Made by a program: the position numbers and the translations under genes. This document shows, one piece after another, positions 404 to 63,654 of a DNA stretch of 64,000 nucleotides; position 1 is the stretch's first letter; each line of letters starts with the position of its first letter. Origin of the DNA: a phage; the sequence record PZ445536.1; one strand, 5' to 3'. The notes below the pieces were generated by a model. The model saw only the letters and a program-made list of their open reading frames with translations, was not told where the DNA came from and did no database searches.

Positions 404-471
404 TTTTATTCTCCGAGATGTTTAATTGTGGTACAGGTATATAATATCATGTCCTGTACCAAAGTAAACAA

Positions 472-804
472 TTATTTTACTACTTTCCAATGCTTCATGT
501 CAAGTTTACCAACTTTTTTCATCTTCTCAATTAAGCGTTCGGCACGTTGGCGAGCTGTAACATAATGCCATTCGCCTAATTCATTTTGTTCAATTTTTCC
601 AACGATTACTGTATTCAATTCATAAATCCAACCAGTAAAGAAATTATGAACTTGAATTGTAAAGGTGAAATCTGTTCCCATACCTTCTGTTGTTTCTACT
701 TCAATAATATCACCTTCAACTGCCATTAAGAACCACATAGTTTCATCATATTTACCATTGAAGCATTTAGTTTTAACTGCAGCGTTCAGATTAATCGTTT
801 TCAT
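472..804 (-). CDS. hypothetical protein (110 aa)
   Basis: ORF with AAGGAG SD 7 nt upstream of ATG and early promoter at 832-861. Confidence 0.6.
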   Translation of the reverse strand: MKTINLNAAVKTKCFNGKYDETMWFLMAVEGDIIEVETTEGMGTDFTFTIQVHNFFTGWIYELNTVIVGKIEQNELGEWHYVTARQRAERLIEKMKKVGKLDMKHWKVVK

Positions 805-831
805 TTTATTCTCCTTTGTTTGTGTAAGATA

Positions 832-861
832 ATACTATCACAAAGGAACTATACTGTAAAC
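832..861 (-). promoter_or_regulatory. T4-type early promoter (-35 GTTTAC, 18-bp spacer, -10 TAGTAT)
   Basis: rc of gtaaac at 856-861 and rc of atacta at 832-837; A/T-rich upstream tract. Confidence 0.5.
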
Positions 862-3770: not shown

Positions 3771-3800
3771 TTCAATTTCCTCATTTATTTTGGTAGAGCT

Positions 3801-3830
3801 ATAATATCACAACTCTACCGTAAAGTAAAC
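3801..3830 (-). promoter_or_regulatory. T4-type early promoter (-35 GTTTAC, 18 bp, -10 TATTAT)
   Basis: rc gtaaac 3825-3830; rc ataata 3801-3806. Confidence 0.5.
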
Positions 3831-7075: not shown

Positions 7076-7106
7076 CATAAAGTCCTCATGTTATGTCAGT
7101 AAGACT

Positions 7107-7136
7107 ACTGTAACACAACATGAGGGACTTGTAAAC
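7107..7136 (-). promoter_or_regulatory. putative early promoter (-35 GTTTAC, 18 bp, weak -10 TACAGT) embedded in 17-bp imperfect inverted repeat
   Basis: rc gtaaac 7131-7136; inverted repeat 7081-7097 / 7114-7130. Confidence 0.35.
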
Positions 7137-8754: not shown

Positions 8755-9933
8755 TTAAAAATATTTTTTAAAACTCATCATAACTTTATCATCAACATCA
8801 TTATCAATCTGTGCAACAAGGTAAGATGACAGTTCTACTTCTTGTGGCGCGGATTGAACATTATCAGAATTAAGATATTCACGAATCCAAGGATATGGAT
8901 GTTTAACCGGAGCATCGATAATTGGGCATGGAAGACCACACTGTTTCATACGAGATACAGTTAAGTAATCAATAAAGCTCCACATGCTATTTGTATTTAA
9001 TCCAGGAACATCGCCATCTTTAAATAAATGAACTGCCCAATCTTTTTCTTGGCGGTTAACTTCCATGAAAATATCAACTGCTTCTTGTTCACACTCTTGA
9101 GCAATTTTAACCCATTCATCGCCATCAGTACCAGATTGAAGTTGACGAATAATATATTGTGTACCTTTAAGATGAAGCTGCTCATCACGTGCAATGAACT
9201 TCATAATCTTTGCATTGCCTTCCATAATTTCCATGTTCTTATGGAAGTTAAAGGTACATGCGAAAGATACATAAAAACGAATAGCTTCCAATGCGTTGAT
9301 TACATGCAAACAGAGGTAAAGAGATTTCATTAGCTCACGCTTCCAATATGTCTCATGCTCAATAGCATCTTCAATAACATCTTCGTCTGCATTAATTTCT
9401 TTTTGGTATTCGATATCAGCTTTAGCGTTTTCCCAATAACGAGTTTTAGTCAGAACATCATCATAATAACGTCCAATGGATTCAGCACGTTTCATAATAG
9501 CTTCATCTAATACAATCTCATCAAATACCTTCGATGGATCAGTATAAAGATTTCGCATGATATGTGTATATGAACGAGAGTGAATAGTTTCACTAAAAGT
9601 CCACGTAGCAACCCATGTATCAAGGCTTGGGTCTGAAATTAATGACATAAGTACAGCAGACGGCGCACGACCCTGAATGCTATCCAAAAGTGATTGATAC
9701 TTCAGATTATTAGTAAAAATATTTTGCTGATACTGAGGAAGCTTATTAAACTGTGCAGCATCCATCATTAAGTTTACTTCTTCAGGACGCCAGAAAAATG
9801 ATAATTGCTTTTCGGTTAAATCTTCAAAAACTTTATGGCGTTGAATATCATAACGCGCAATACCAAGACCTGAACCAAAAAACATAGGTTCTTTTAAAAC
9901 ATCAACTGGATTTGTATTAAAAACTGTGCTCAT
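8755..9933 (-). CDS. nrdB: ribonucleotide reductase small subunit
   Basis: 392-aa uninterrupted ORF; class Ia R2 ferritin-like features; T4 NrdB synteny; no intron. Confidence 0.9.
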   Translation of the reverse strand: MSTVFNTNPVDVLKEPMFFGSGLGIARYDIQRHKVFEDLTEKQLSFFWRPEEVNLMMDAAQFNKLPQYQQNIFTNNLKYQSLLDSIQGRAPSAVLMSLISDPSLDTWVATWTFSETIHSRSYTHIMRNLYTDPSKVFDEIVLDEAIMKRAESIGRYYDDVLTKTRYWENAKADIEYQKEINADEDVIEDAIEHETYWKRELMKSLYLCLHVINALEAIRFYVSFACTFNFHKNMEIMEGNAKIMKFIARDEQLHLKGTQYIIRQLQSGTDGDEWVKIAQECEQEAVDIFMEVNRQEKDWAVHLFKDGDVPGLNTNSMWSFIDYLTVSRMKQCGLPCPIIDAPVKHPYPWIREYLNSDNVQSAPQEVELSSYLVAQIDNDVDDKVMMSFKKYF

Positions 9934-9984
9934 AAATTTTCCGCTTAGTTAATAGTTGGTGACTCGTCCGTGAGTCAAATTATA

Positions 9985-12249
9985 TCATAATTTACAGGAT
10001 GAACAATCTTCAGCTTTTGGAGTTTCTATTTCATAATCATCAGTACCAGAACCATCACGGGTATTATGATAATAGAAATTTTTTCCGCCAAAATACCAAA
10101 AATACAAAAGGTCATCAATCATTATTGACATTGGAACCTTTCCTTTTGGAAAAATCTGTGGGTCATAATATGTATTCGCTGAAGCTGATTGACATACCCA
10201 TTTCAGCATAATAGCTACCTGCGTAAGATAAGGTTTATTACCTTTCTTAGCTAATTTCCATGTATAATCATAGAGGTCTATGTTATGCTCAATATTGGGC
10301 ACGACTTGATTAAAGGAGCCCTCTTTTGATTCTTTAACAGAGACTGGTCCACGTGGAGGCTCGATACCGTTTGTACTGTTAGAAACTTGGGAAGATGACT
10401 CACATGGCATAAGTGCTGATAATGTGCTATTACGGATGCCAAAGAGCTTAAGGTCTTCCCGCAGCGACGACCAGTCACAAACGTATTTTGGAGCTGCGAT
10501 TTGGTCAATCTTTTTATTGTACCAGTCGATAGGTAATTCGCCTCGAGACCAACGAGTGTCTGAATAATATTCACAAGGTCCTTTTTCTTTGGCGAGCTTA
10601 ATGGATGCTTTAATGAGTCCATACTGTAATCTCTCAAATAGTTCATGTGTTAAATCGTTAGCATCTTCATAAGAAGCAAAGTTACTTGCCAGCCAAGCTG
10701 CATAGTTAGTAACACCTACACCAAGGTTTCGACGCTTTTTAGCTTTTTCTGCTTCAGGAACTGGATATCCTTGGTAATCCAAAAGATTATCAAGAGCACG
10801 AACTTGAACTTCTGCTAATTCATTAATTTTATCTTGGTCTTGCCAATCGAAGTTATCCAACACAAATGCAGATAACGTGCACAATCCAATTTCAGCATCA
10901 GGGCTATTCACATCATTTGTTGGAATAGCAATTTCACAGCACAAGTTACTCTGACGAATAGGTGCCTTTTCACGAATAAACGGAGTATAGTTATTCGTAT
11001 TATCAATGAACTGCACATAAATCCTTGCTGTTCCTGAGCGTTCAGTCATGAGCAATTCAAATAGTTCACGGGCTTTAATGCGCTTTTTACGAATATTAGG
11101 GTCTTTTTCTGCTGCTTCGTATAATTCACGGAAACGGTCTTGGTCTTTAAAATAAGAATAATAAAGCTCTCCACCCATTTCATGTGGACTGAACAAAGTA
11201 ATGTAATCGTTCTTTCCAAAACGTTCCATCATTAGATCATTCAGTTGAACACCATAATCCATATGACGAATGCGGTTTTCTTCTACACCTTTGTTATTTT
11301 TCAAAACGAGAAGATTTTCAACTTCCAAATGCCAAATAGGATAATAAGCAGTAGCAGCGCCGCCACGAATTCCACCCTGTGAGCATGATTTAACAGCAGT
11401 CTGAAAATGTTTCCAAAAAGGAATAACACCGGTATGGCGTACTTCACCCATGCCAATCTTAGAACCTTCAGCACGAATCATACCAACGTTAATACCAATT
11501 CCAGCGCGTTTAGAGATATATTCAACAATTGAAGCGGAAGCCTTATTGATAGACTTTAATGAATCACCTGCCTCAATAACAACACATGAACTAAACTGTC
11601 GAGTCGGAGTACGGCAACCAGCCATAATAGGAGTTGGCAATGAAATCTGTCGAGTAGATACTGCTTCATAAAAACGGATAACGTGTTTTAATCTATCAAC
11701 AGGTTCATCTTGATGCAATGCCATTCCAATAGTCATAAATGCAAACTGTGGAGTTTCATAAATTTGACCAGTGGTTTTATCTTTAACTAGATATTTTTCT
11801 TTTAATTGCATCGCCCCGGAATAAGTAAATTCCATATCCCGCTCGTGCTTAATTTTTGATTCTAAAAATGTAATTTCTTCTGCTGAATATTTTGACAATA
11901 ATTCAGGGTCGTATTTACCTTCATTTACACAGTAAGAAATATGGTCAATAAATGAACGTGGTTCATACTGCCCATAAACATGCTTACGAAGAGCGAACAT
12001 TAGACAACGTGCAGCTACATATTGATAATCAGGCTCTTCAACCGAAATAGAATTCGCAGCGGCCTTAATGACAATAGTCTGAATATCATCAGTTGTCATT
12101 CCATCACGGAGATAAGATTTAATATTTTCATATAATTCATAAGGATCTACCGATGTTCCTTCAGCTGCCCAAGATAAAACTTTAATAATTTTTTGTGGGT
12201 CAAAGCTCTGAGAAACACCACTACTTTTGATAACATTAATTAATTGCAT
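9985..12249 (-). CDS. nrdA: ribonucleotide reductase large subunit
   Basis: 754 aa (T4 NrdA length); ATP-cone N-terminus, catalytic Cys/Glu/Asn residues (SNLCCEIA). Confidence 0.92.
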   Translation of the reverse strand: MQLINVIKSSGVSQSFDPQKIIKVLSWAAEGTSVDPYELYENIKSYLRDGMTTDDIQTIVIKAAANSISVEEPDYQYVAARCLMFALRKHVYGQYEPRSFIDHISYCVNEGKYDPELLSKYSAEEITFLESKIKHERDMEFTYSGAMQLKEKYLVKDKTTGQIYETPQFAFMTIGMALHQDEPVDRLKHVIRFYEAVSTRQISLPTPIMAGCRTPTRQFSSCVVIEAGDSLKSINKASASIVEYISKRAGIGINVGMIRAEGSKIGMGEVRHTGVIPFWKHFQTAVKSCSQGGIRGGAATAYYPIWHLEVENLLVLKNNKGVEENRIRHMDYGVQLNDLMMERFGKNDYITLFSPHEMGGELYYSYFKDQDRFRELYEAAEKDPNIRKKRIKARELFELLMTERSGTARIYVQFIDNTNNYTPFIREKAPIRQSNLCCEIAIPTNDVNSPDAEIGLCTLSAFVLDNFDWQDQDKINELAEVQVRALDNLLDYQGYPVPEAEKAKKRRNLGVGVTNYAAWLASNFASYEDANDLTHELFERLQYGLIKASIKLAKEKGPCEYYSDTRWSRGELPIDWYNKKIDQIAAPKYVCDWSSLREDLKLFGIRNSTLSALMPCESSSQVSNSTNGIEPPRGPVSVKESKEGSFNQVVPNIEHNIDLYDYTWKLAKKGNKPYLTQVAIMLKWVCQSASANTYYDPQIFPKGKVPMSIMIDDLLYFWYFGGKNFYYHNTRDGSGTDDYEIETPKAEDCSSCKL

Positions 12250-14916: not shown

Positions 14917-15159
14917 TTAAACAGACTTTTTCACAATTTTCCAATCGGCTTTAAACTGCTCGACGTCAGAATGGTAAATCCAAAATCCTGCGCTTTCACC
15001 GTCTTCATAAAGCGGACACCCATCACATTCATCTTCCCATCCCATGCCACGTAAAAGGTGTTCAGCTTTTTCAACAAGTTCAGAATCTTTACCGATGATA
15101 TTAAAATACCATTTACCTCTAACTTCCGAATCTTTGATGCTCTGACGTTGTAATCTCAT
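14917..15159 (-). CDS. hypothetical protein (about 80 aa from MRLQRQ)
   Basis: ORF 14917..15216; start moved to internal ATG because early promoter 15185-15214 and AAGGAGAATAAAATG SD lie upstream of it. Confidence 0.55.
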   Translation of the reverse strand: MRLQRQSIKDSEVRGKWYFNIIGKDSELVEKAEHLLRGMGWEDECDGCPLYEDGESAGFWIYHSDVEQFKADWKIVKKSV

Positions 15160-15184
15160 TTTATTCTCCTTAGTTGATAAGGCT

Positions 15185-15214
15185 ATAGTATCATTACCAT
15201 AGCCCGTTGTAAAC
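15185..15214 (-). promoter_or_regulatory. T4-type early promoter (GTTTAC, 18 bp, TACTAT)
   Basis: rc gtaaac 15209-15214; rc atagta 15185-15190. Confidence 0.55.
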
Positions 15215-16134: not shown

Positions 16135-16177
16135 ATTATTTTCCTCTTTAATCATCAGCAGTATTGCCGATAGTTGT

Positions 16178-16207
16178 ATAGTACCATGGAAGGACAAGGA
16201 TGTAAAC
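16178..16207 (-). promoter_or_regulatory. T4-type early promoter cassette (GTTTAC, 18 bp, TGGTACTATA)
   Basis: rc gtaaac 16202-16207; rc atagta 16178-16183; member of conserved 55-bp cassette family. Confidence 0.6.
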
Positions 16208-16232
16208 TGTTTTGTGAAAAAAATTTTTGAAA

Positions 16233-16260
16233 TAAAAAAAGGGGACCTCTAGGGTCCCCC
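16233..16260 (-). terminator. Rho-independent terminator downstream of gene 32
   Basis: GGGGGACCCUAGAGGUCCCC hairpin followed by U7 on - strand. Confidence 0.75.
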
Positions 16261-17191: not shown

Positions 17192-17262
17192 TTTTATTTC
17201 CTTTTTAATTTAATTAACAGTTGGTGCTATGACGATGTATGACCTCATAGCTGGTCAGTGAG
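17192..17262 (-). promoter_or_regulatory. gene 32 5' leader: AU-rich translational operator with upstream stem (autogenous repression site)
   Basis: UUAAUUAAAUUAAAAAGGAAAUAAAAAUG upstream of the 32 start plus GCUAUGA...UCAUAGC stem; known gp32 autoregulation architecture. Confidence 0.55.
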
Positions 17263-17274
17263 ATAATTATAATC

Positions 17275-17282
17275 TATTTATA
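17275..17282 (-). promoter_or_regulatory. late promoter TATAAATA upstream of gene 32
   Basis: rc of tatttata on + strand. Confidence 0.5.
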
Positions 17283-17290
17283 ATAAGCAA

Positions 17291-18534: not shown

Positions 18535-19452
18535 TCAAAATTCATTAATGCTATTAGTTAATTTAGAAAGACCCGCTTTTACAAAATATGAATAAATTTT
18601 GCCACGCGGTGGTAATTTATATGAATTATAGTAATTCACAATGTTTGAAGCAATATTATCAGGAATATAATCAAAATCAATTAGAACTAAATTTTCTTTA
18701 TAACGATTATATTCAGATTCTGTGAGAAGCACCTTAGCTTGCTCACGGTCATTAGCAATAGCTTCAACGATTGAAGTTTTCATTGAAGGAGTTCGTTCAC
18801 CTTCAACTCTGGTAAACCAAAAGTCAGATCGTACTTTAACTGAAGCAACGTTATCCTTTTTGTCGCCTTTAAGGATTTTAGTCATGCAATCAATTTCAGC
18901 AGAACCGCTTTTAATTTTAACCCATTTCTTATGCATCGGTGACCATTGCTTAACATTTGGATATTTGTGAAGCTGTGTAAAGTCACCATCCGATGAAATG
19001 ATTAAAATCTTGTGTCCTTCTAAAGAGAACTTTTTAACAAGAACAGCAATGTGGTCATCCGCTTCATACTTATCAATATCCATAACAATGTATGGCATAT
19101 AAGCTTTCAATTCATCTATAACTTTATGGCTGGATTCAAAATAACCTTCCCAGTCCCAAGTAGATTCTTCTCGTGCTTTTCCACGGTTTTTCTTATAATA
19201 ATAAGCGAAATCACGACGCCAGTATCCAGATTTCGCGTTATCAATACACAGTACAATTTTAGTGTATCCAAGCGTTTTTGCTTTTTTGACATTAAACTTA
19301 ATTGAGTTCAATATCAAATGACGAACCATTGATAAATTAATTTTTTCTTTATCTGGGAAGTTTACTAAAGCAGTTGAAAGCGCAATTTGACTAAAGTCAA
19401 TAAAGCAAATTCCTTCTTTGTAATCTTCATCCAACATCATTTCTAAATCCAT
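18535..19452 (-). CDS. rnh: RNase H (FEN-1-like 5'-3' exonuclease)
   Basis: 305 aa from MDLEMMLDEDYKEG; T4 RNase H. Confidence 0.9.
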   Translation of the reverse strand: MDLEMMLDEDYKEGICFIDFSQIALSTALVNFPDKEKINLSMVRHLILNSIKFNVKKAKTLGYTKIVLCIDNAKSGYWRRDFAYYYKKNRGKAREESTWDWEGYFESSHKVIDELKAYMPYIVMDIDKYEADDHIAVLVKKFSLEGHKILIISSDGDFTQLHKYPNVKQWSPMHKKWVKIKSGSAEIDCMTKILKGDKKDNVASVKVRSDFWFTRVEGERTPSMKTSIVEAIANDREQAKVLLTESEYNRYKENLVLIDFDYIPDNIASNIVNYYNSYKLPPRGKIYSYFVKAGLSKLTNSINEF

Positions 19453-19481: not shown

Positions 19482-19511
19482 ATTATATACCATCCAAATC
19501 TTAAAGTAAAC
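19482..19511 (-). promoter_or_regulatory. T4-type early promoter for rnh (GTTTAC, 18 bp, TATAAT)
   Basis: rc gtaaac 19506-19511; rc attata 19482-19487; divergent from late P34. Confidence 0.55.
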
Positions 19512-25286: not shown

Positions 25287-28200
25287 ATGGCTACTTTAAA
25301 ACAAATACAATTTAAAAGAAGCAAAACCGCAGGTGCACGTCCTGCTGCTTCAGTATTAGCCGAAGGTGAATTGGCTATAAACTTAAAAGATAGAACAATT
25401 TTTACTAAAGATGATTCAGGAAATATCATTGATTTAAGCATTTCCGCTGGCGGTAATATCAGTGGAAATGTAACTATTGATGGAACTTTACGCGTCAATG
25501 GACCAATAAACAATTTTGGAAATTTTTCCACAAGTGGCCAGATTACCGCTGGTAGTAGTATTTCAGCTCAAGTTTTTAGAGCATTGCAAGGTTCGTTTTA
25601 TACAAGAGCATCAAATGATGTCTCAAATGCCCATTTATGGTTTGAAAATGCCGATGGCACTGAACGAGGTGTTATATATGCTCGTCCTCAAACTACAACT
25701 GACGGTGAAATACGCCTTAGGGTTAGACAAGGAACAGGAAGCACCATTAATAGCGAATTCTATTTCCGTTCTATAAACGGCGGTGAATTTCAAGCCAATC
25801 GTATTTTAGCATCAGATTCGTTAGTAACAAAACGCATTGCAGCTGATACAGTTATTCACGGTGGCAAAGCCTTTGGTGTATATGATACGGATTCATTAGT
25901 TAACTACGTATACCCAGGCACCGGTGAAACTAACGGAGTAAACTATCTTCGTAAAGTTCGCGCTAAATCAGGCGGTACCATATGGCATGAGCTTTGTACT
26001 GCTCAATCAGGCCAAGCTGATGAAATGTCTTGGTGGACCGGTTCTACTCCTATTTCAAAACAATTTGGTATTCGTCATGACGGTCGGATGATTGTCCGCA
26101 ATAGTCTTGCATTAGGCACTATGACTACTGATTTTCCATCGAGCGATTATGGTAATGGTGGCGCATTAGGATTCGGTGCTTATTTGGCTCTAGGTGATAA
26201 CGGAACTGGTTTACGCTATCAAAAAACCGGTGTTTATGATTTAGTTGGTTCCGGATTGTCTGTTGCATCTATTACTCCAGATAGTTTCCGTAGTACTCGT
26301 AAAGCATTATTTGGACGTTCAGAAGACCAAGGCACCACATGGATTATGCCTGGAACGAACGCTGCATTTTTATCAGTTCAAACACAGGCTGATGAAAACA
26401 CTGCTGGAGACGGCCAGACGCATATTGGCTATAACTCAGGCGGAAAAATGAACCACTATTTCCGTGGTAAAGGCAAAACTAATATTAATACTCAGGAAGG
26501 TATGGAAGTTAATCCGGGTATTTTGAAATTGGTAACTGGCTCTAATAATGTAATGTTTTATGCTGATGGCGGTATTACATCTGTTAAGCAGCTTTCAATA
26601 TATAATGGCATATATTTAGCAGCTAATAATTCTACTGCTGGGCTAACATTCGCTCCAACTACTACAGTTGATGGTACTAAGCAAATTTTGTGGGAAGGCG
26701 GTACTCGTGCTGGGCAGAATAAAAGCTATGTAACTGTTAAAGCGTGGGGTAATTCATTTAACGCATCTGGCGATCGTTCCCGTGAAACAGTTTTTGAGGT
26801 AGGTGATGGGCAAGGTTACCATTTTTATTCTCAACGTGTAGCTCCTGCGCCTGGTTCGACTGTCGGGCCTATTCAACTCCGAGTTGATGGTGGTTTATTA
26901 ACTTCAGGTAGTATTGTTGCTTCTGGTTCTATTACAACCGAATCTTCTTTGAGTGTTAATAATGGCATGTCAGTAAACGGACAAGCTAAATTCGGTGGAA
27001 CTGCTGATGCATTAAGAATTTGGAATGCCGAATACGGTGCTATTTTCCGTCGCTCAGAAACAGCATTACATATTATCCCGACTCCCAAAGATGCCGGTGA
27101 AAGTGGTGGAATAAGTAATCTCCGCCCACTTAGTATTAGTCTTAATAATGGTATGGTACAAATGCGCCATTCTGTTACGTTAGGCGATGATGGCGCTGGC
27201 GGTAATATGATTACTGTGGACAACGATACCAAACTTGTTGTTGTTACTAGTAATAGTCGCATTTCTCCTAATTACCGTATGCAGGTAGGACAAGCAGCTT
27301 ATATTGATGCTGAATGTACTGACACAGTTCGCCCGGCTGGTGCAGGGTCTTTTGCTTCACAAAATAATGAAAACGTTCGTGCTCCATTCTATATGAATAT
27401 TAATCGCACAGATACAAGTACTTACGTTCCTATTTTGAAACAGCGATATGTCCAAGGAAACAGTTGTTATTCTCTGGGAACTCTAATTAACGGCGGTAAC
27501 TTCAGAGTTCATTATCATGAAGGCGGCGATGGCGGTTCGACTGGCGCTATTATAAAGGATTTAGGTTGGGAATTTACCAAAAATGGTGATTTTATATCTC
27601 CTAAGCGTGTTTCTGCTGGGGGTTCAGTTTATTTAGGTACAGACGGCAATATTACAGGTGGTTCTGGCAATTTTGCTAATTTAAACAGTACAATTGAATC
27701 ACTTAAAACCGATATTGTATCGAGTTACCCAATCGGTGCTCCTATTCCATGGCCAACGGATACTCCTCCTGACGGTTACGCTATTATGGAAGGCCAGACT
27801 TTTGATAAGTCTGCATACCCAAAATTGGCTATGGCTTACCCATCTGGCGTAATTCCAGATATGCGCGGGCAAACTATTAAAGGTAAACCAAGTGGTCGAG
27901 CTGTATTAAGCGCAGAAGCCGATGGTGTTAAGGCTCATAGCCATAGTGCATCGGCTTCAAGTACTGACTTGGGTACTAAAACTACGTCGAGTTTTGATTA
28001 TGGTACTAAGACGACAAGTAGCTTTGACTATGGCACTAAGACTAGCAATACCACAGGTAACCACTCTCATACTGTAAGCGGTACTACGAGTTCTGCTGGT
28101 GCACACCAACATGCGCGCTCAGGTCCTCAGTTACAAGCCGGCATACCCAATAACATATTCTATGACGGATATAATAGTGTAGGTGCAAACGCCAACGCTA

Positions 28201-28481
28201 AAATCACCGGATCTGTGAGCGGTGCTACTGCAGGGTCGAATATAGCCAAAACTTCTTCAGACGGTGCTCATACCCATACTTGGTCTGGTACTACAAGCAC
28301 TACAGGTAACCATGCTCACACAGTAGGTATTGGTGCTCATACCCATACTGTAGGTATCGGTGCTCATACCCACACGGTAGCAATTGGCTCGCATGGTCAT
28401 ACTATCACTGTAAATAGTACAGGTAATACAGAAAACACGGTTAAAAACATCGCTTTTAACTATATCGTTCGTTTAGCATAA
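25287..28481 (+). CDS. 37: gp37 long tail fiber distal subunit (receptor-binding tip with His-box)
   Basis: 1064 aa; C-terminal HxH repeats ([36 protein letters not shown]) typical of the T4-type gp37 needle; shares VFEVGD..HFYSQR box with gp34. Confidence 0.9.
27972..28031 (+). repeat. tandem 30-nt coding repeat ([10 protein letters not shown] x2, partial third) in gp37
   Basis: Direct repeat read from sequence with synonymous differences. Confidence 0.75.
28323..28403 (+). repeat. tandem 27-nt coding repeat x3 (VGIGAHTHT His-box units) in gp37
   Basis: gtaggtattggtgctcatacccatact repeated with 2-3 substitutions. Confidence 0.8.
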
Positions 28482-30019: not shown

Positions 30020-30175
30020 CACTCAATTAGTTGACTTTGTTATAATATCATCAGACGCTTGATTTGTAAACTGGTCTGTGTTATTTTCTTCAAAAATTTT
30101 TTCTACGAATTCCTTGAACGACTTACGTTCCTGAGCTACATTATGCTCGATTACTTTTTCAAGATTATGACTCAT
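30020..30175 (-). CDS. small hypothetical protein (51 aa)
   Basis: Hand-translated ORF (MSHNLEKVIEHNVAQERKSF...) with ATGA overlap to the arn stop; below ORF-track size cutoff. Confidence 0.4.
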
Positions 30176-32465: not shown

Positions 32466-32506
32466 TTTCTAATCTCCGTAATTCTGTATCAGTAGTTGAT
32501 AGTTGT

Positions 32507-32536
32507 ATAGTACCACAGTATGCTTTGGTTGTAAAC
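32507..32536 (-). promoter_or_regulatory. T4-type early promoter cassette for motA
   Basis: rc gtaaac 32531-32536; rc atagta 32507-32512; conserved cassette. Confidence 0.6.
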
Positions 32537-32555
32537 CGTTTTGTGAAAAAATTTT

Positions 32556-32585
32556 AAAATAAAAAGGGAGAGCCTCGGCTCTCCC
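32556..32585 (-). terminator. Rho-independent terminator downstream of gene 52 region
   Basis: GGGAGAGCC-GA-GGCUCUCCC hairpin followed by UUUUUAUUUU on - strand. Confidence 0.7.
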
Positions 32586-32736
32586 TAAAATTACTGCATG
32601 ACAGTTATCACAGTCATGATAACACGTTGAATTCCGAACGCAAGAAGACCTCCTGCTATGGCTGGAACAACGCCTAAACCCGCCAGTAAAATGCCGCCAG
32701 ATACTAATGCTGCGCTTGTAATACCTATAAATGGAC

Positions 32737-35496: not shown

Positions 35497-35645
35497 ATTT
35501 TCCTCACATAAATCCAAAGTAAACGTTTAATACATCAATCATTAAAACGATTGGGAATATACTCAAAACTATTAGTATTATAACTACATTCCATATAGCT
35601 TTAACAATCTTTTTCATTTTCTGTTCCTCCGTAGTTGATAGGGTA

Positions 35646-35675
35646 ATAGTACCACGGAAGAACAGTCTTGTAAAC
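35646..35675 (-). promoter_or_regulatory. T4-type early promoter (GTTTAC, 18 bp, TACTAT)
   Basis: rc gtaaac 35670-35675; rc atagta 35646-35651. Confidence 0.55.
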
Positions 35676-35861
35676 AACTTTTTTTAAAAATATTCGTAAT
35701 AAATGTGAATACCAACTACTACCGCTGAAACTTGCACAGCCCACCACGCACAAGCAATAAGTACAGAATTCAAAATTTTCATAATAACCTCATCACAAAA
35801 GTAAATGTTAAACAAATTACTGGAATACTAATTAACCAAACAAAACACCACCATAATGAAC

Positions 35862-36125
35862 TCATAGCTCAATCTCAGCGATTTTCATTTCATTACTATT
35901 AATAGCCGCTTTAAGACTATCTGAAAGAATTACATTCCAGTGGTCATTCATATGACCATTAACTAAGCGTGTAATTTCTTCAGGAGTTGAAAAATAAGGC
36001 TGATCAGACTCCCAATGCGATAATCCTAAGCGAGTATAAATCATGCCTTCATCATCGCTAGAATATTCAACTGACACAAACTCATCAGTTATTTTATGTT
36101 TAGCGTAATAAAATTTAAATTTCAT
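35862..36125 (-). CDS. hypothetical protein (about 87 aa from MKFKFYYAKHK)
   Basis: ORF 35862..36224; start set downstream of early promoter 36160-36189 and GGAGAATAAAATG SD. Confidence 0.55.
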   Translation of the reverse strand: MKFKFYYAKHKITDEFVSVEYSSDDEGMIYTRLGLSHWESDQPYFSTPEEITRLVNGHMNDHWNVILSDSLKAAINSNEMKIAEIEL

Positions 36126-36159
36126 TTTATTCTCCAAATCCGTATCAGTTGATAGTTGT

Positions 36160-36189
36160 ATAGTACCACGGTCCTTGTGGTATGTAAAC
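36160..36189 (-). promoter_or_regulatory. T4-type early promoter cassette
   Basis: rc gtaaac 36184-36189; rc atagta 36160-36165. Confidence 0.6.
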
Positions 36190-36205
36190 CGTTTTGTGAA
36201 AATTT

Positions 36206-36763
36206 TTAAATGGAAAGATACCATCCGTTGTAGTTGCTTTTTCTTACAACCTTACGAAGGTCTTCTCTATCACCGATGAACTTTGGAGTGTACTGGATGA
36301 CACCTGGATGAATTTCTTTAGTGTTGAATATAATTATACAGTCAGCGACCTGATGATTCAGAATGGGCCCTAGATTTATTCCAGAACCATATGGATACTC
36401 TCCGCTGCATCCCGTTGTTACCGAAATCCATCGTGAGTCAGTTTGATGGGTCTTAACTTCTACACGAAGCCCACAGTATTTTGGATGCGCCAATACATCC
36501 CATGCATATGTGTACGGATCATCGACATCTTCTTGACCTTTGTTAACATACCCGCTCAGCCAATCTGCCACAAAAAACTCTGCGTACACAGCGATACGAC
36601 ATCTTTCAATAACTTCTGCCTTATTCTGATTTGGGTTTTGTTTTAAAGAGTATCTTGCAGTATCAGCAATTTTGACCTTCATTTCACTAGTCAAGTCACC
36701 GTTCGATAGAGTAAATGTCGGAATCTGAAATAGTCTCTGTAACCCAGGATTCGTTTTCTGCAT
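36206..36763 (-). CDS. denB: endonuclease IV (DenB)
   Basis: 185 aa (T4 DenB length) at conserved position between ndd cluster and rIIB. Confidence 0.75.
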   Translation of the reverse strand: MQKTNPGLQRLFQIPTFTLSNGDLTSEMKVKIADTARYSLKQNPNQNKAEVIERCRIAVYAEFFVADWLSGYVNKGQEDVDDPYTYAWDVLAHPKYCGLRVEVKTHQTDSRWISVTTGCSGEYPYGSGINLGPILNHQVADCIIIFNTKEIHPGVIQYTPKFIGDREDLRKVVRKSNYNGWYLSI

Positions 36764-36820
36764 TTAAACTTTCCTTTATGTCGGAATCACTGATATTCAT
36801 ATAATAAATCATAATTTCTC

Positions 36821-36843
36821 TTAAAACAAAAGGGCCGAAGCCC
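36821..36843 (-). terminator. putative terminator (GGGC-UUCG-GCCC + UUUUGUUUU)
   Basis: Hairpin and U-tract on - strand downstream of ORF 36850..37044. Confidence 0.5.
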
Positions 36844-36849
36844 TTTATT

Positions 36850-37044
36850 TTACTTGAATTGTGCAATTCTTTTCTCTAGACATTCAGCGTAAGATTTCAT
36901 TGAGATGAACTGTGAAAGTAGCAGTTCTTGCTCAACTGCGTTAACTGTTAGAAACTTTGCGCTTTCTAAAAATTTGCTCAGTGCATTAATTTTGAGCATT
37001 AATTGATCGTATTCTTCTTTTACTCGTGCTTGATAACCTAACAT
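36850..37044 (-). CDS. hypothetical protein (64 aa)
   Basis: ORF between rIIB and denB with AAGGAAAATTATG RBS. Confidence 0.55.
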   Translation of the reverse strand: MLGYQARVKEEYDQLMLKINALSKFLESAKFLTVNAVEQELLLSQFISMKSYAECLEKRIAQFK

Positions 37045-37060
37045 AATTTTCCTTAGTTAA

Positions 37061-37072
37061 GGGCCGAAGCCC
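37061..37072 (-). other. stem-loop GGGC-UUCG-GCCC immediately after rIIB stop
   Basis: Read from sequence; followed by SD of the next ORF. Confidence 0.4.
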
Positions 37073-38010
37073 TTATTTAAATTGTTCAGTAACGTCTTCA
37101 ACTACTTCGTATTGGCAGGTACGCATTTTAGCATCGTTGTAATCAATCGGAATTGATACTACATCACGCGGATGTACTTTAACTTTTACGACTCGGCTGG
37201 TTGAACTGCCAAAGTGACGAATATAAGATTTAGAACACACATGCAGACCACGAGAACAAGTTTGTGTATCATCGTCATTCACACGAGTACGTGGCATTTT
37301 AACTACTTTACCCGGACTGTTATCAAAGGTGTTTGAGTGACAGTCAAAGTAATTGCTGCGAACTACTTTCCAAGCATAGAAGTAACCATCTTCTGTAATT
37401 TCAATATCGTTTGCTACCAAGAAATCAAAGAGTCGAGATACCGCTTTTTGGCTTGGGTTTTCCAGCAGATTTTCCAAGAACGGAAAATAAAATTCAAAGT
37501 TTTCGCCTTTTTCCATCGAATCAAGAATACGATCAACTAAACCAGACCGCAATTCAATATTTTGATAGAACAAGCTTCCACCTTCAATTCGAACATCGCC
37601 GGAAATATATTTTTCAACAGCGCGACGAACATTAATTTTTGTGCAGCTTCTTCCAGCTTATCTGTTACAAGCAGATTAAGAATTTCCTGGAAGTTTGAAT
37701 GAGTATTAGGAGTTGCGTTATAAGTTACACCCTCAACAGTAATTGAAATGAATTTTTTAGATGCATTCCAAATAATGTCAGATTTAGCAACTGGAGCAAT
37801 AACTGCATCGCTATTAACTTTAACTGTAATATCACCACTAATAGTAACTTTAGGGCGTTTAGCTTCTTCAGCATTTTTCAAAACACGACGGATTGTGTCA
37901 ACCGATACATCCTTCCAATAAGCTAATTCCTGCTGAGTGTAATTACCACTTGAATACAGTTTAACAATTTCAGCTTGTTCGTTTTTGGTCAGGCATTTAA
38001 TATTGTACAT
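37073..38010 (-). pseudogene. rIIB: rIIB, split by an apparent -1 frameshift in an A5 run (two ORFs 37537..38010 and 37073..37573)
   Basis: N-terminal ORF begins MYNIKCLTKNEQAEIVKLYSSGNYTQQELA (rIIB); reading frame shifts after ...LEEAAQK at coding-strand CAAAAATTAATG (+ strand T-run 37636-37640); restoring one A gives a continuous ~312-aa protein (...AAQKINVRRAVEKYISGDVRIEGGSLFYQNIELRSGLV...). Confidence 0.8.
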
Positions 38011-40438: not shown

Positions 40439-40468
40439 ATTATACCACATCCTTGTGGTAAAGTAAAC
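40439..40468 (-). promoter_or_regulatory. T4-type early promoter (GTTTAC, 18 bp, TATAAT)
   Basis: rc gtaaac 40463-40468 overlapping gene 39 stop; rc attata 40439-40444. Confidence 0.6.
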
Positions 40469-42285
40469 TACTGGCTCATCCATTCTTTACGAAGGTCAGC
40501 ATTATCTCCCATGAGCATTTCAAAAAGCTCTTTCCAATTCTCAGGAAGTTTAACAACATCATATACTGGATTTTGAATCATCTCACGATATTCAGATTTT
40601 TCCAAAGAGCCAAGTCCTTTAATATAACGGATGCTATGTTTAGGTAGAGCATCTTTGGCACTCTCATATTCAGCGACTGTATAAAACCATTCTTGTTTTT
40701 TACCGACCTGAGCGATGATTACAGGAGTTTTGACGAAGCGAATTCGTCCTTGCTCAAACAATTCTGGCCAATTACTAAAAAATCCGAGCAGAGAAGGATA
40801 AATGCTTCCTAGACCATCATGGTCAGCATCAGTCATAATAGCAATATTGCGATAATTCAAGTTTTCAGCTTTTTCACCAAGAACTAATCCAGTGATTGCG
40901 CAAATATCAAATAGCTCTTTGTTTTTAAGCATATCTGCATAAGACATACCCCAACTGTTGAGAACTTTACCGCGCAATGGATAACCACCATGAAGTTCTT
41001 TATCACGAACATCAATAAGATATCCGATAGCCGAATCACCCTCAGTCAAGAAAAGAGTAGTATCAGCATCTTTACCACAAAGATTCGCTTTGATATGTTT
41101 ATGAACCTTAGCTTTAGAAGCCTTTTTAGCTGCTTTAGTTTCTGCTGCTTTTTCTGCCGCCAATTTACGAGCCAAAGCAGCTTCGATAATCGGCATTAGA
41201 ATTGCTTCATTATTTAGAATAGCGCGTGAAATCTTTTTAGCATCAAGCTGAATATGACTACGAATTTCGCCAAATGGAGAAGTCAAACGCTCTTTAGTTT
41301 GAGAATCAAATCGCATGTTTTTCATATCACGGACAAACATAACGATAGTCAAACATTCTTTAACGCGTGCTTTAGTCACATCAATTTTGAACTTACGTTT
41401 GATTTGTGGAATAAGGTCTTCACAAATATCATCCATAACACAGTCAATGTGATGGCCACCATTCTTAGTATGAATGTTATTGACGTATGTTAATTGACGA
41501 AAACCATCCGGTGAACGACCAACCGCAATAGAACAATTTTCTTGTTCTTGAACGATAGCATGCTCATCATATTGGCGTGCATATTTCTTAAAATTGCCCT
41601 GAACCTTTTTACCATTAAAGGTAAATTGAATATCAGGATAAACTACTGCAAGTGTCTGGAGACGATCTAGTGTAATGTCAAGATAAACCTGAGATAGCTC
41701 ATTAGTTTCAAATGACATAAAATCAGGAATGAAAGTAACACTGGTTCCTTTCCATTTTCCAGGAATAGTTTCCCAGGATTTATTTTCCATGCCATTTGAA
41801 CAACGAACTACAATATTATTTTGACCATCGCCAGTTTCACCGACAAACATCACAGAAAAAATGTTAGTTAAACTAGAACCAACACCATTCATACCACCGG
41901 TGACGCGTTCTTTATCATCACCAAAGTTACCACCTGCTTTTGGAATAGTCCATGCAGCAACAGGACCAGGAATTTCTTCACCGGTAGGTGTTTTAACCAT
42001 CGCTTGTGGAATACCGCGACCGTTATCTTCAACTGTTACTTGATTGTTTTTAATAGTAACATTAATTTTATTTGCGAATTTAAACTTAGTACGAATACCT
42101 TCATCTACTGAGTTATCGATAATTTCATCAATAAGCTTAACAAGACCAGGTACATACTGAACACTTTCCCATTTACCAAACAGAAAGCGCTCATGCATTT
42201 CATTAGCTGAAGAGCCAATGTACATGCCGCTACGCTTTTTGATATGTTCAATATCGCTCAGAATTTTAATTTCATTCTTAATCAT
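40468..42285 (-). CDS. 39: gp39 topoisomerase II large subunit (GyrB-like), uninterrupted 39+60-type ORF
   Basis: 605 aa from ATG at 42285; GHKL ATPase and Toprim features; no split into genes 39 and 60. Confidence 0.9.
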   Translation of the reverse strand: MIKNEIKILSDIEHIKKRSGMYIGSSANEMHERFLFGKWESVQYVPGLVKLIDEIIDNSVDEGIRTKFKFANKINVTIKNNQVTVEDNGRGIPQAMVKTPTGEEIPGPVAAWTIPKAGGNFGDDKERVTGGMNGVGSSLTNIFSVMFVGETGDGQNNIVVRCSNGMENKSWETIPGKWKGTSVTFIPDFMSFETNELSQVYLDITLDRLQTLAVVYPDIQFTFNGKKVQGNFKKYARQYDEHAIVQEQENCSIAVGRSPDGFRQLTYVNNIHTKNGGHHIDCVMDDICEDLIPQIKRKFKIDVTKARVKECLTIVMFVRDMKNMRFDSQTKERLTSPFGEIRSHIQLDAKKISRAILNNEAILMPIIEAALARKLAAEKAAETKAAKKASKAKVHKHIKANLCGKDADTTLFLTEGDSAIGYLIDVRDKELHGGYPLRGKVLNSWGMSYADMLKNKELFDICAITGLVLGEKAENLNYRNIAIMTDADHDGLGSIYPSLLGFFSNWPELFEQGRIRFVKTPVIIAQVGKKQEWFYTVAEYESAKDALPKHSIRYIKGLGSLEKSEYREMIQNPVYDVVKLPENWKELFEMLMGDNADLRKEWMSQ

Positions 42286-43821: not shown

Positions 43822-44091
43822 TTAATTAAACAGTGGAGCGATGCGTTTCAGAAGAGTAGCAGCACCTTTGGCGAATTTTACATCATGAAAAACAGTTTCT
43901 TCTTCCGTTACAACACGAGCTTTAATGTTTTCACAATCCCAATTTTTACGAACAATCTTCAAAAGCTGCAGTAAATCTTTACATTCAGCAATATCGATAA
44001 CACATCCACGAGAATCTTCCATTATCGCACGATAACCGTAAGCCATACCATAATCGTTGAAAGATTGCTCGATGATAATTAAGTTTTCCAT
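43822..44091 (-). CDS. hypothetical protein (about 89 aa from MENLIII)
   Basis: ORF 43822..44103; GGAGAATAAAATG SD supports second ATG. Confidence 0.55.
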   Translation of the reverse strand: MENLIIIEQSFNDYGMAYGYRAIMEDSRGCVIDIAECKDLLQLLKIVRKNWDCENIKARVVTEEETVFHDVKFAKGAATLLKRIAPLFN

Positions 44092-44117
44092 TTTATTCTC
44101 CAAGTTGTTTTCTGTAT

Positions 44118-44156
44118 CAGTAGTTGATATTGATATAGTACCATAATCAACTACTG
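44118..44156 (-). promoter_or_regulatory. early-promoter-like -10 (TGGTACTATA) embedded in a perfect 11-bp inverted repeat; -35 degenerate
   Basis: cagtagttgat (44118-44128) and atcaactactg (44146-44156) flank rc atagta 44135-44140. Confidence 0.4.
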
Positions 44157-44198
44157 ATGTATATAGTTTTATGAAAAAATTTTAAACTTTATGCAAAT

Positions 44199-44618
44199 TT
44201 ATGCTAAAGCTGCTTCGCACCATTTTTTAATTTGGAATTCAGGAACTACCATGAACTGGCCTGCAAAAACAATATTGTAGAGCTTGACACCATCTTCTAC
44301 CCAACGGTCCGAAATAAAACCAGCGACTTGATTCGTTGTCCATGGAGTTCCATCTGTTGCCGCCGCAATTGTGAATTTATGGTCTTTTACAACTAAAACT
44401 GAAGAACAAAGTTTCCATTTAAATGCGCTTTCTTCTGGCTCAATGAACTGACTTGAGACATAACCAATGTTACCATCAGCGTCACGAACTTTAACCTCGT
44501 TACGACCAAAAACTGGATCACTTACAGAAAGAACTTCAACCAGCTTTCCTGCAACTTTAGAACGAGAAGCAACGGATACATATACGTAATCACCAGTAGA
44601 GAGATTTACAATATTCAT
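44199..44618 (-). CDS. hypothetical protein, tandem paralog A (139 aa)
   Basis: Shares N-terminal SVASRSKVAGKLVEV and C-terminal GFISDRWVEDGVKLYNIVFAGQF motifs with the next two ORFs. Confidence 0.6.
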   Translation of the reverse strand: MNIVNLSTGDYVYVSVASRSKVAGKLVEVLSVSDPVFGRNEVKVRDADGNIGYVSSQFIEPEESAFKWKLCSSVLVVKDHKFTIAAATDGTPWTTNQVAGFISDRWVEDGVKLYNIVFAGQFMVVPEFQIKKWCEAALA

Positions 44619-44627
44619 AATAATTCC

Positions 44628-45101
44628 TTAAGCTTTACGAGGAGAAGCATAACGAGTGATTTCAGATTCTTCAACAACCCGGAAGTCACCTAAGAATACG
44701 ATATTGTAGAGCTTTTCACCATCTTCAACCCATTGGTCTGTGATGAAGCCACACATCCTATCAGTTTTACTTGGACCAGCGAAATCATCAATATAATCGA
44801 ATTCTTCATCAGTTACAAATTCAACGCCTTTACACAACGCCCATTTAAATTGTGCATTAGACTCAGTGGATTCAACTTCTTCAACAGAAGCAAAATGAGA
44901 GCTAACACGAGTTTCCAGAAATTTAGGACTTACGTAAGCGTACTGAGTTTCAGTTTTTCCAGAACTAGGAATGATTCGAACTTTAACTTCTATAACACGA
45001 CCAGTACCATTAGTACGAAGTCCTACCACTTCAACTAGACGACCTGCAGCTTTAGAACGAGATGCAGACGATACACGCTTAATTTCACCGATAGTAATCA
45101 T
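44628..45101 (-). CDS. hypothetical protein, tandem paralog B (157 aa)
   Basis: SSASRSKAAGRLVEV ... GFITDQWVEDGEKLYNIVFLGDF. Confidence 0.6.
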   Translation of the reverse strand: MITIGEIKRVSSASRSKAAGRLVEVVGLRTNGTGRVIEVKVRIIPSSGKTETQYAYVSPKFLETRVSSHFASVEEVESTESNAQFKWALCKGVEFVTDEEFDYIDDFAGPSKTDRMCGFITDQWVEDGEKLYNIVFLGDFRVVEESEITRYASPRKA

Positions 45102-45173
45102 AATTTTTCTCTCTTTGTTGTTAAGATTTATTCTCCATGAGAGCCATTATAACAGGCTCTCTATAAAGTAAAC

Positions 45174-45668
45174 TTAATTAAGGATATTAATTACTGCACT
45201 GCGTGGAACTACACTAAAATCACCTGCATGAACAACGTTCAGAAGTTCAACACCATCTTCAAGCCACTGGTCAGTTACCCAACCACTTACTGGACCAGCA
45301 AATGGTCGACGAATTGAAACAGCTTTACACAACAAGTCAGTAGGCTCGATAGGCTTAACCAGAGTACCGTACATACAAGCGATATCCATATCAATACAGA
45401 TGTCTTTAACGGGTTCTACTTCTTCAATCAACAGTTCAAAGTCGGTGCTTGGAAGGGCGGTAGTAGAAATTGTACCGTATGAATTTTTAATTTCTAAGAA
45501 TAACCAAGGGCCTTCAGCTTGTTTGATGAAGTTAACAATAGTGAAACTATTACCTTGAGTGGCGCCTAAAATTTCACAAAACTTTTCATAAGCTCGCACT
45601 GAAGCACCATACCAGTTGATTTGTTTTTCGTCTTTCAGGATGTAAGTAGCTGTAGTACTGATATTCAT
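45174..45668 (-). CDS. hypothetical protein, tandem paralog C (164 aa)
   Basis: Divergent N-terminus but shared C-terminal GWVTDQWLEDGVELLNVVHAGDF motif. Confidence 0.6.
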   Translation of the reverse strand: MNISTTATYILKDEKQINWYGASVRAYEKFCEILGATQGNSFTIVNFIKQAEGPWLFLEIKNSYGTISTTALPSTDFELLIEEVEPVKDICIDMDIACMYGTLVKPIEPTDLLCKAVSIRRPFAGPVSGWVTDQWLEDGVELLNVVHAGDFSVVPRSAVINILN

Positions 45669-46211: not shown

Positions 46212-46241
46212 ATAATACCACAACTAACCGAGGAAGTAAAC
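46212..46241 (-). promoter_or_regulatory. T4-type early promoter (GTTTAC, 18 bp, TATTAT)
   Basis: rc gtaaac 46236-46241; rc ataata 46212-46217. Confidence 0.5.
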
Positions 46242-49844: not shown

Positions 49845-49874
49845 ACTATAACATTTTTACTTTAGCTTGTAAAC
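49845..49874 (-). promoter_or_regulatory. T4-type early promoter (GTTTAC, 18 bp, TATAGT) upstream of srd
   Basis: rc gtaaac 49869-49874; rc actata 49845-49850. Confidence 0.5.
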
Positions 49875-51183: not shown

Positions 51184-51213
51184 ATCATATCATCGTTAGA
51201 AAGGAAAGTAAAC
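51184..51213 (-). promoter_or_regulatory. T4-type early promoter (GTTTAC, 18 bp, TATGAT) upstream of modB
   Basis: rc gtaaac 51208-51213; rc atcata 51184-51189; GGAGG SD before the ATG. Confidence 0.5.
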
Positions 51214-53285: not shown

Positions 53286-53315
53286 ATTATACCATACTCA
53301 TTTTGGAAAGTAAAC
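53286..53315 (-). promoter_or_regulatory. T4-type early promoter (GTTTAC, 18 bp, TATAAT)
   Basis: rc gtaaac 53310-53315; rc attata 53286-53291. Confidence 0.45.
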
Positions 53316-57830: not shown

Positions 57831-57860
57831 ACTATACCATAGTCTTGTCAGCTTGTAAAC
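57831..57860 (-). promoter_or_regulatory. T4-type early promoter (GTTTAC, 18 bp, TATAGT) with 8-bp inverted repeat around the -10
   Basis: rc gtaaac 57855-57860; rc actata 57831-57836; IR caagacta/tagtcttg at 57824-57831 and 57840-57847. Confidence 0.5.
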
Positions 57861-63512: not shown

Positions 63513-63546
63513 TTTATTCTCCAAATCCGTATTAGTTGACAGTTGT

Positions 63547-63576
63547 ATAGTACCATGGAAGAACAGTCTTGTAAAC
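63547..63576 (-). promoter_or_regulatory. T4-type early promoter cassette
   Basis: rc gtaaac 63571-63576; rc atagta 63547-63552. Confidence 0.6.
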
Positions 63577-63654
63577 AGTTTTGTGAAAATTTTTTAGGGA
63601 ATTCTAAAGGTCCAGAATCATCTGTTTTTCATAAGTATAGATTTATATTACTTG

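Follow-up and report, generated by a model that had tools for sequence, protein, structure and literature searches.

Early promoter cassettes of a T4-like coliphage: a subfamily with consensus UP elements and spacer sequences shared between loci

The early promoters (Pe) of phage T4 have reportedly been compiled by Liebig & Ruger in 1989, by Wilkens & Ruger in 1996 and by Miller et al. in 2003. T4 early promoters have been reviewed as 'uber' promoters, in which UP, -35, TGn and -10 elements are combined with further consensus positions and whose activity is boosted by Alt (Hinton 2010, PMC2988021). Early promoters accompanied by a stem-loop (PeSL) have been described as cassettes that mediate modular shuffling, with a T4/PST consensus of TTTACW-N17-TAYWAT and an example taken from the ndd region, which lies inside the window studied here (Arbiol 2010, PMC2839356; Comeau 2014, PMC4122927); some PeSL subclasses have a stem-loop that overlaps the -10 (Arbiol 2010, PMC2839356). 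Regarding the early messages, GGAGAAUAAAA is required for efficient cleavage by RegB/S1 in T4, the consensus of the site being GGAGRAYARAA, and the motA and motB RNAs are among the published substrates (Durand 2006, PMC1702504).

The window, i.e. the whole 64,000-nucleotide stretch of sequence record PZ445536.1 analysed here, comes from a Tequatrovirus (T4-like coliphage) ~98% identical to sequenced isolates, and maps on the T4 reference from ~129.5 kb through the record end to ~27.5 kb. A 6-kb piece around 16178-16220, which spans rnh, 32, 59, frd and 34, matched 809 records and showed 98.5% identity to Tequatrovirus isolates. A first-pass annotation had drawn attention to a repeated element in this DNA and read it both as strong early promoters and as cassettes for recombination. 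Since both halves of this interpretation are in the literature, the element is already known: early promoters, their UP/-35/TGn/-10 build, the RegB site in early leaders and the shuffling of promoter cassettes are all published. What is new here is that spacer barcodes reveal recurrent ectopic gene conversion among the cassettes, which is a small extension of the PeSL idea.

Several further differences from T4 were observed in the window. About 0.6-1.1 kb is missing at the td intron/I-TevI, the nrdB intron/I-TevIII, mobE, segG and mobA, and in the segF, dam and segA regions (window positions 9257-9989, 13118/13119, 17254-17290, 40803-40868, 53640-54607 and 60803-61750), and the phage appears to be largely free of T4 homing-endonuclease genes and introns here. 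The distal tail-fibre region of genes 37/38 (25587-28338, plus strand) is only 77-84% identical to T4 and includes unalignable stretches; it is the usual host-range hypervariable region, in which the closest relative annotates a different gp38-type protein. The motB region contains three tandem paralogous ORFs on the minus strand (44199-44618, 44628-45101 and 45174-45668; 139, 157 and 164 aa) that have a common C-terminal motif, GF(I/V)(S/T)D(R/Q)W(V/L)EDG..L.N(I/V)V, in a stretch with only 72-74% identity to T4 or unalignable to it. A 49-nt direct repeat (56008-56056 and 56366-56414, 94% identical, 358 nt apart) surrounds a 309-bp segment absent from T4, where a single copy of the repeat is found at 19128-19176 in the 61.1/61.2 region; the arrangement suggests the gain or loss of a small gene between the two repeat copies, with no promoter involvement.

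Early promoters of the window and their register

By searching the window for GTTTAC-N16-19-TAnnAT, 19 matches were obtained against an expectation of 1.1 ± 1.1 estimated from dinucleotide-preserving shuffles, and 18 of the 19 lay on the minus strand, which carries the early genes of the window. The equivalent pattern in the whole T4 genome gave 41 matches on the early strand and 0 on the opposite strand. Filtering for intergenic position and an extended -10 left ~21 credible promoters (Table 1; copies are named after the coordinate of their -36 base). All of them are on the minus strand (21/21), in the orientation of the early-gene homologues that they precede, and each has a T4 counterpart at the syntenic site; the genes behind them include frd.3, motA, ndd.4, asiA, rnh, alc, dmd, modB and srd. 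The seven copies reported by the first-pass annotation (16178-16220, 32507-32550, 36160-36203, 63547-63590, 15185-15214, 35646-35675 and 57831-57860) were all recovered, on the minus strand. A generic scan of the window for the E. coli sigma70 hexamers TTGACA/TATAAT gave no enrichment over shuffles (60 vs 63; 28 vs 25) and was dropped as evidence for or against the cassettes; the scan is at chance in this A+T-rich DNA, so the promoter signal resides in the extra positions.

The register of these promoters was set by T4. The T4 RefSeq record names an 'early promoter Pe133295' between cd.2 and cd.3, which is the orthologue of window copy 3830, and the G of GTTTAC of this orthologue is at 133331, exactly 36 nt upstream of the Pe133295 position. 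Together with the published location of GTTTAC at -36 to -31 (Nolan 2006, PMC1524935), this makes the G of GTTTAC -36 and the A seven bases after the -10 +1. We infer promoter activity and the exact +1 from orthology and this T4 register, in which the predicted transcripts would start with AUCAACUA.

The window promoters carry GTTTAC at -36 to -31 (ATATAC in copy 44164) followed by a TAnnnT -10 at 17-bp hexamer spacing, an A/T-rich UP element at -40 to -57, and an extended -10 (TGn) with a GT-rich run 5' of -12. The TG is present in 19 of the 21, and all six copies of the subfamily described below have TGG. The dmd promoter falls outside the TAnnAT pattern with its TATAGT, yet it is real. T4 Pe likewise have GTTTAC at this position, a 17-bp spacer, TGn, TAnnAT, an A/T-rich UP region and early-gene orientation, and they show no difference of substance from those of the window, although some spacers and downstream ORFs differ. 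T4 has sequence-identical orthologues of the subfamily at 6.6, 27.1, 146.9, 163.7, 166.8 and 167.1 kb, and further members at 55.4 and 70.7 kb, outside the window. We are almost certain that the repeated element represents host-sigma70-dependent early promoters (Pe) of a T4-type phage. The first-pass reading as T4-type strong early promoters is borne out by the orthologous near-identical T4 elements, by Pe133295, by UP scores of 11-14/14 and by the published description (PMC2988021).

Table 1. Positions of early promoters and flanking features in the window
Feature	Position	Strand	Details
Subfamily promoter 16207	16164..16228	-	-57 to +8; G 16207, predicted +1 A 16171; UP 14/14
Subfamily promoter 32536 (motA)	32493..32557	-	G 32536, predicted +1 32500; T4 163673 orthologue; UP 13/14
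Early promoter 35675 (ndd.4 homologue)	35632..35696	-	G 35675, predicted +1 35639
Subfamily promoter 36189	36146..36210	-	G 36189, predicted +1 36153; T4 167086 orthologue; UP 11/14
Subfamily promoter 44164	44121..44185	-	predicted +1 44128; T4 6630 orthologue; UP 13/14
Subfamily promoter 63576	63533..63597	-	G 63576, predicted +1 63540; T4 27080 orthologue; UP 12/14
Early promoter (frd.1 homologue)	15185..15214	-	-36 to -7; general T4 early class
Early promoter (dmd)	57831..57860	-	-36 to -7; -10 TATAGT
Early promoter (30.7 homologue)	441..469	-	general class
Early promoter	832-861	-	general class
Early promoter	3801-3830	-	general class; = T4 Pe133295
Early promoter	7107-7136	-	general class
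Early promoter	19482-19511	-	general class
Early promoter	30042-30071	-	general class
Early promoter	40439-40468	-	general class
Early promoter	45146-45173	-	general class
Early promoter	46212-46241	-	general class
Early promoter	49845-49874	-	general class
Early promoter	51184-51213	-	general class
Early promoter	53286-53315	-	general class
Early promoter	57328-57357	-	general class
Intrinsic terminator of gene 32	16240..16260	-	8-bp G+C-rich stem + T run; annotated in related records
Intrinsic terminator	32565..32586	-	9-bp stem + T run; directly upstream of motA promoter
GGAGAATAAAA, predicted RegB/S1 site + Shine-Dalgarno	36125..36135	-	immediately before ATG
GGAGAATAAAA, identical site	404-414	-	
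GGAGAATAAAA, identical site	804-814	-	
GGAGAATAAAA, identical site	15159-15169	-	
GGAGAATAAAA, identical site	44091-44101	-	
GGAGAATAAAA, identical site	63512-63522	-	
Inverted repeat around -10	44116-44158	-	13-bp arms
Inverted repeat around -10	430-465	-	
Inverted repeat around -10	3790-3825	-	
Inverted repeat around -10	7080-7130	-	
Inverted repeat around -10	45135-45165	-	
Inverted repeat around -10	57820-57855	-	
Inverted repeat around -10	805-850	-	

Conserved blocks, leaders and inverted repeats

When the 21 promoters were aligned, the information content came to ~8 bits for the 32 nt preceding GTTTAC, 10.9 for GTTTACw itself, 3.4 for TGn, 6.8 for the -10 and ~6.4 for the 28 nt past it, whereas the 14-nt spacer held ~0 bits. 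This information in the UP, TGn and start regions, along with the chance-level hexamer scan, agrees with the first-pass claim that conservation reaches beyond the hexamers. The near-identical element of ~55 bp that had been described was correct in that two conserved blocks are alike, but there is no uniform 55-mer: the subfamily consists of these two blocks on either side of a 14-nt spacer that varies at chance level (average spacer identity of the five core copies 16207, 32536, 36189, 63576 and 44164, 4.5/14 vs a background of 4.0/14), with the pair 63576/35675 as an exception (13/14). A repeat search grouped 16153-16229, 32482-32558, 35621-35697, 36135-36211 and 63522-63598 as one 77-nt family and added a sixth member at 44110-44186, with a -35 of ATATAC, which had been overlooked in the earlier list of copies. 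The extent of 16178-16220 given for the first copy takes in the stretch from -35 to -10 with a portion of the UP block; the ACAACTATC that was described with it, which reaches ~16164, is left out.

The upstream block of the subfamily, AAAAATTTTTTCACAAAAC, lies at about -57 to -38. It was scored against the SELEX consensus of the UP element, AAAWWTWTTTTNNNAAA (as quoted in PMC2412878), and the six subfamily copies matched 14, 13, 13, 12, 12 and 11 of the 14 specified positions, whereas random window positions scored 6.8 ± 1.6 and only 0.18% of them reached 12. The mean over the early promoters was 9.3, with the non-subfamily promoters at 5-11. The scores of 11-14/14 indicate that the subfamily comprises early promoters with a consensus full UP element. 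The register, -57 to -41, is that of the full UP element of E. coli (rrnB P1 type). What sets the phage promoters apart is that, as described for T4, ADP-ribosylation of Arg265 by Alt/ModA modulates contact by the alpha-CTD (PMC2988021).

The downstream block is made up of TGn, the -10 hexamer and the start region (+1 ATCAACTA). Known RNA polymerase contacts do not account for its part from -6 to +13 (ACAACTATCAACTACTGAT), which may reflect in part hitch-hiking with conversion, or a signal at the RNA level. Individual members vary around this plan. Copy 44164 has ATATACA in place of GTTTACA, and with this poor -35 it may rely mainly on the UP, TGn and -10 elements; it also has a 13-bp perfect inverted repeat (ATCAGTAGTTGAT / ATCAACTACTGAT) around its -10. 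Promoter 35675 is a partial member, which shares the -10/start block and the spacer of 63576 but has a different UP block. The frd.1-homologue promoter has the ATCAACTA start region and a RegB-type leader, with homology to T4 starting just past the -10. Promoter 36189 is located between denB and ndd.6, and 63576 between gene 43 and imm.1.

Regarding the leader, the first-pass annotation had described GGAGAATAAAATG as following most copies. This was overstated, as only three of the seven listed copies (15185, 36160 and 63547), and two of the four main ones, have it; the window contains 5 exact copies of the 13-mer. Judged by its match to the RegB/S1 consensus, the GGAGAATAAAA leader is a Shine-Dalgarno sequence combined with the published optimal RegB/S1 cleavage site, not a promoter feature (PMC1702504). 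GGAGRAYARAA has 6 exact sites in the window against 0.37 expected, all on the minus strand, and each is the Shine-Dalgarno sequence of the first gene behind an early promoter, in the intergenic translation-initiation region of an early transcript. The leader matches the RegB/S1 target at 11/11 positions, and cleavage here is predicted; the motA leader of the window, GGAGAUUAGAA, is two positions off the consensus. The regB gene itself is outside the window.

Like PeSL, the window cassettes consist of a sigma70-like early promoter preceded by an A/T-rich region and end, at the 3' side, in a Shine-Dalgarno sequence with a start codon; they stand beside variable ORFs, and the T4/PST consensus of PeSL fits them. 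Of the stem-loop that is often combined with the promoter in PeSL, the window shows less: only 4/21 have an upstream terminator, and 7/21 a stem around the -10. Upstream intrinsic terminators were found at 16207, 32536, 861 and 53315, compared with 3.6% of random positions; those of 16207 and 32536 are strong and end 28-32 nt before the -36 G, and the one at 16207 is the gene 32 terminator, 32 nt upstream, which creates a terminator-promoter composite. Promoters 36189 and 63576 have neither an upstream terminator nor a stem around the -10. Two repeated hairpins were also observed: a terminator hairpin, AGGACTCCCGAAGGAGTCCT, at 881-910 and 53321-53350 (93% identical), immediately upstream of promoters 861 and 53315, and GGGCCGAAGCCC, which occurs three times (1-37, 36818-36854 and 37047-37083).

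Perfect inverted repeats of at least 7 bp surround the -10 in 7/21 promoters against ~1 expected, and 0 of 2000 permutations reached seven. Their 5' arm is in the spacer and their 3' arm at or after +1; the arms vary among promoters while complementarity is kept (8-10 bp at the dmd promoter, for instance), and the 3' arms of promoters 861 (30.8) and 7136 (alc) extend over the Shine-Dalgarno sequence. None was found in the four core copies 16207, 32536, 36189 and 63576. Since the -10 and +1 are in the loop, the hairpin is possible only in RNA that reads through from upstream, and in a third of the early promoters the inverted repeats may make downstream translation dependent on the gene's own promoter. 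The hairpins of T4 e, soc, 49 and I-TevI (PMC3014915) similarly have the -10/+1 in the loop, and their arrangement over the Shine-Dalgarno sequence is found at two promoters here; in T4, however, the internal promoter is late or middle, whereas those of the window are early, with predicted hairpins and with four core copies lacking the feature.

These observations bear on whether the start region (+1 AUCAACUACUGAUAC...) is additionally an element at the RNA level, acting in 5'-end stability, S1/RegB recruitment or translation, or as an arm of the read-through hairpin. Such a role would account for the ~6.4 bits downstream of the -10 and for the distribution of TATCAACTA, of which T4 has 10 copies on its early strand and a single one on the opposite strand, 9 of the 10 being at the start region of early-promoter matches; the excess of inverted repeats, and the 3' arms of 861 and 7136 over the Shine-Dalgarno sequence as in the T4 e/soc/49/I-TevI structures (PMC3014915), would also fit. 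On the other hand, RegB/S1 cleavage has no specific sequence need 5' of GGAG (Durand 2006, PMC1702504), no Rfam family matched anywhere in the window, the inverted repeat is absent from all four core copies, and the block could be an effect of the initial transcribed sequence on promoter escape or hitch-hiking with conversion. We consider this additional role unlikely, although it survives better than the other alternatives weighed below.

Spacer alleles and exchange between cassettes

A blastn search with the 16207 region found the cassette in 711 phage records, typically at about five places in each, and it is also present in Mosigvirus phiC120, i.e. in a second genus. From the window, T4, IMG/VR and metagenomes, 72 distinct subfamily cassettes were collected and classed by upstream flank, spacer and downstream flank. 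Among these, the motA, 167.1-kb and 55.4-kb loci have one spacer each in every phage; the motA spacer, ACCAAAGCATACTG, is identical in 10 of 11 other cassettes with the same upstream context, the remaining one being a single-base variant. The syntenic 32|frd.3 locus, in contrast, has at least 5 unrelated spacers among phages, each of which matches that of another cassette: the motA type (L035, L063), the 55.4-kb type (T4), the 167.1-kb type (L039, L055), the 27.1/70.7-kb type (L029) and the 70.7-kb type (16164-16228 in the window, L005, L044, L057). L009 is also among the recipient loci. Promoter 16207 of the window, which is upstream of the frd.3 homologue and is the orthologue of T4 146875, thus has a spacer, TCCTTGTCCTTCCA, unlike that of T4 at the same locus.

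The copied tracts extend beyond the spacer. In T4, the frd.3 and 55.4-kb cassettes match exactly along 58 nt (-55 to +3), and two metagenomic genomes have an frd.3 cassette that does not differ from their own motA cassette over 54-58 nt; where whole genomes exist, the donor cassette is found in the same genome. The same upstream half and spacer are also joined to different leaders and genes (L011, L015, L018, L054). These sequence comparisons show directly that ectopic gene conversion and exchange within the conserved blocks are real and recurrent, especially into the 32|frd.3 promoter, and the pattern suggests that the frd.3 promoter beside gene 32 is a conversion hotspot. The potential for recombination and gene shuffling that the first-pass annotation had seen in the cassettes is that of the published PeSL model (PMC2839356, PMC4122927) and agrees with the spacer barcodes common to different loci; in-place conversion of cassettes is clearest here and is not explicitly described in the PeSL papers. 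No paper that specifically reports ectopic conversion among the early promoters of T4 turned up in a literature search.

Recurrent conversion raises the question of whether the likeness beyond the hexamers has a function at all, or whether concerted evolution, through conversion or duplication, has simply kept young copies similar, only the -35 and -10 being of importance. The 13/14 spacer bases shared by 63576 and 35675 and the 58-nt identity of the T4 146.9-kb and 55.4-kb cassettes would be expected of such repeats. However, the chance-level spacers of the five core copies (4.5/14 vs 4.0/14) are not expected from recent copying and rule out simple recent duplicates for the family as a whole; the upstream block fits a SELEX consensus derived independently for alpha-CTD binding; the blocks are kept with different spacers across many phages and Mosigvirus phiC120; and in this A+T-rich genome the hexamers by themselves are no more frequent than chance. 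A lack of function outside the hexamers is therefore improbable, somewhat more so than the RNA-level role.

The dispersed consensus-UP early promoters of T-even phages might form a repeat family that evolves in concert, with the polymerase-contact blocks serving as homology arms and the neutral 14-nt spacer as a carried barcode. The 32|frd.3 promoter would then have been overwritten independently, in different lineages, from at least three or four donor cassettes, and ectopic conversion would routinely homogenise and reshuffle early regulation, beyond the insertion and deletion of ORFs in the PeSL model. We put this forward only tentatively, as a reading that has less than an even chance of being right.

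Three small ORFs were observed directly behind cassettes 36189, 44164 and 63576 (35862-36125, 43822-44091 and 63276-63512, all on the minus strand; ~87, 89 and 78 aa, the last with an apparent signal peptide); they are missing in T4, where the promoter, leader, ATG and a short stub remain. At the junctions of the three losses there are direct repeats of 8-14 nt at the gene starts (AATnAAATGAAA, ATGkAAAA and ATGAAAAT), which points to loss in the T4 lineage by microhomology deletion, to judge by the junction sequences. Microhomology recombination in T4 has been shown experimentally (Srikant et al. 2022, PMC9391042). When the window was compared with T4, 3 edges (3/26 homology breaks) lay within ~60 bp of a cassette, where a rough estimate predicts ~2, so that no enrichment of the 26 breaks at cassette cores was found; most breaks are homing-endonuclease or intron differences.

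These data also bear on the idea that the cassettes are mobile elements, i.e. PeSL-type mini-circle units that carry gene cargo and possibly use a dedicated recombinase, for which promoter activity would be secondary. Mini-circles have been published for RB49/phi1 (PMC2839356), and both the joining of one upstream half and spacer to different leaders and genes (L011, L015, L018, L054) and the three small ORFs absent from T4 might be seen as traces of such units. However, all window cassettes are syntenic with T4, the number of break edges near them is close to chance, the adjacent indels are direct-repeat deletions at gene starts and not exchanges at the cassette core, which is also a difference from PeSL, and no recombinase is associated with the cassettes; we regard the idea as very unlikely. 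The least probable reading, with hardly any likelihood left, is that TTTTCACAAAAC serves not as a UP element but as the target of a specific regulator (for example a CRP-like half-site, or the site of a phage DNA-binding protein). The block does contain TCACA and is conserved more sharply than a generic A/T tract. However, this TCACA, at -46 to -42, is a lone half-site that lacks a second one at the distance needed for CRP, its CAC falls in the NNN positions of the UP consensus, and the flanking A5-T6 and AAA tracts fit that 17-bp consensus in the correct register with up to 14/14 matches, so that a CRP-type site was rejected on geometry.

Proposed mechanism and use

In the mechanism that we propose, the early promoters would fire on injected DNA before any phage protein exists. 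The alpha-CTDs of RNA polymerase would bind the A/T-rich UP block, which in the subfamily (AAAAATTTTTTCACAAAAC) is a near-consensus full UP element, and, following the E. coli promoter model, sigma region 4 would contact (G)TTTACA at -36 to -30, sigma region 3 TGn and sigma region 2 TAYTAT at -12 to -7. The first base of the RNA would be the A located seven bases past the -10, so that transcripts would open with AUCAACUA; in the T4 model, Alt-mediated ADP-ribosylation of alpha further favours some early promoters (PMC2988021). Several copies would be insulated by the intrinsic terminator just upstream, and in several copies the Shine-Dalgarno sequence of the first gene, GGAGAAUAAAA, would at the same time be an optimal site for the RegB/S1 nuclease, so that the early message is proposed to be shut down within minutes. 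Selection on the polymerase-contact blocks, together with repeated ectopic gene conversion, would keep the four to six near-identical copies alike; the conversion would leave a visible trace, since the 14-nt spacer, neutral in function, is transferred with the blocks.

As a discovery these results carry little weight, and their use is mainly in annotation, where they add ~21 early transcription units with starts predicted at the base level and six RegB-type leaders. In addition, the spacer barcodes offer a simple measure of ectopic recombination between short homology blocks (~20-25 nt) across hundreds of Tequatrovirus genomes.
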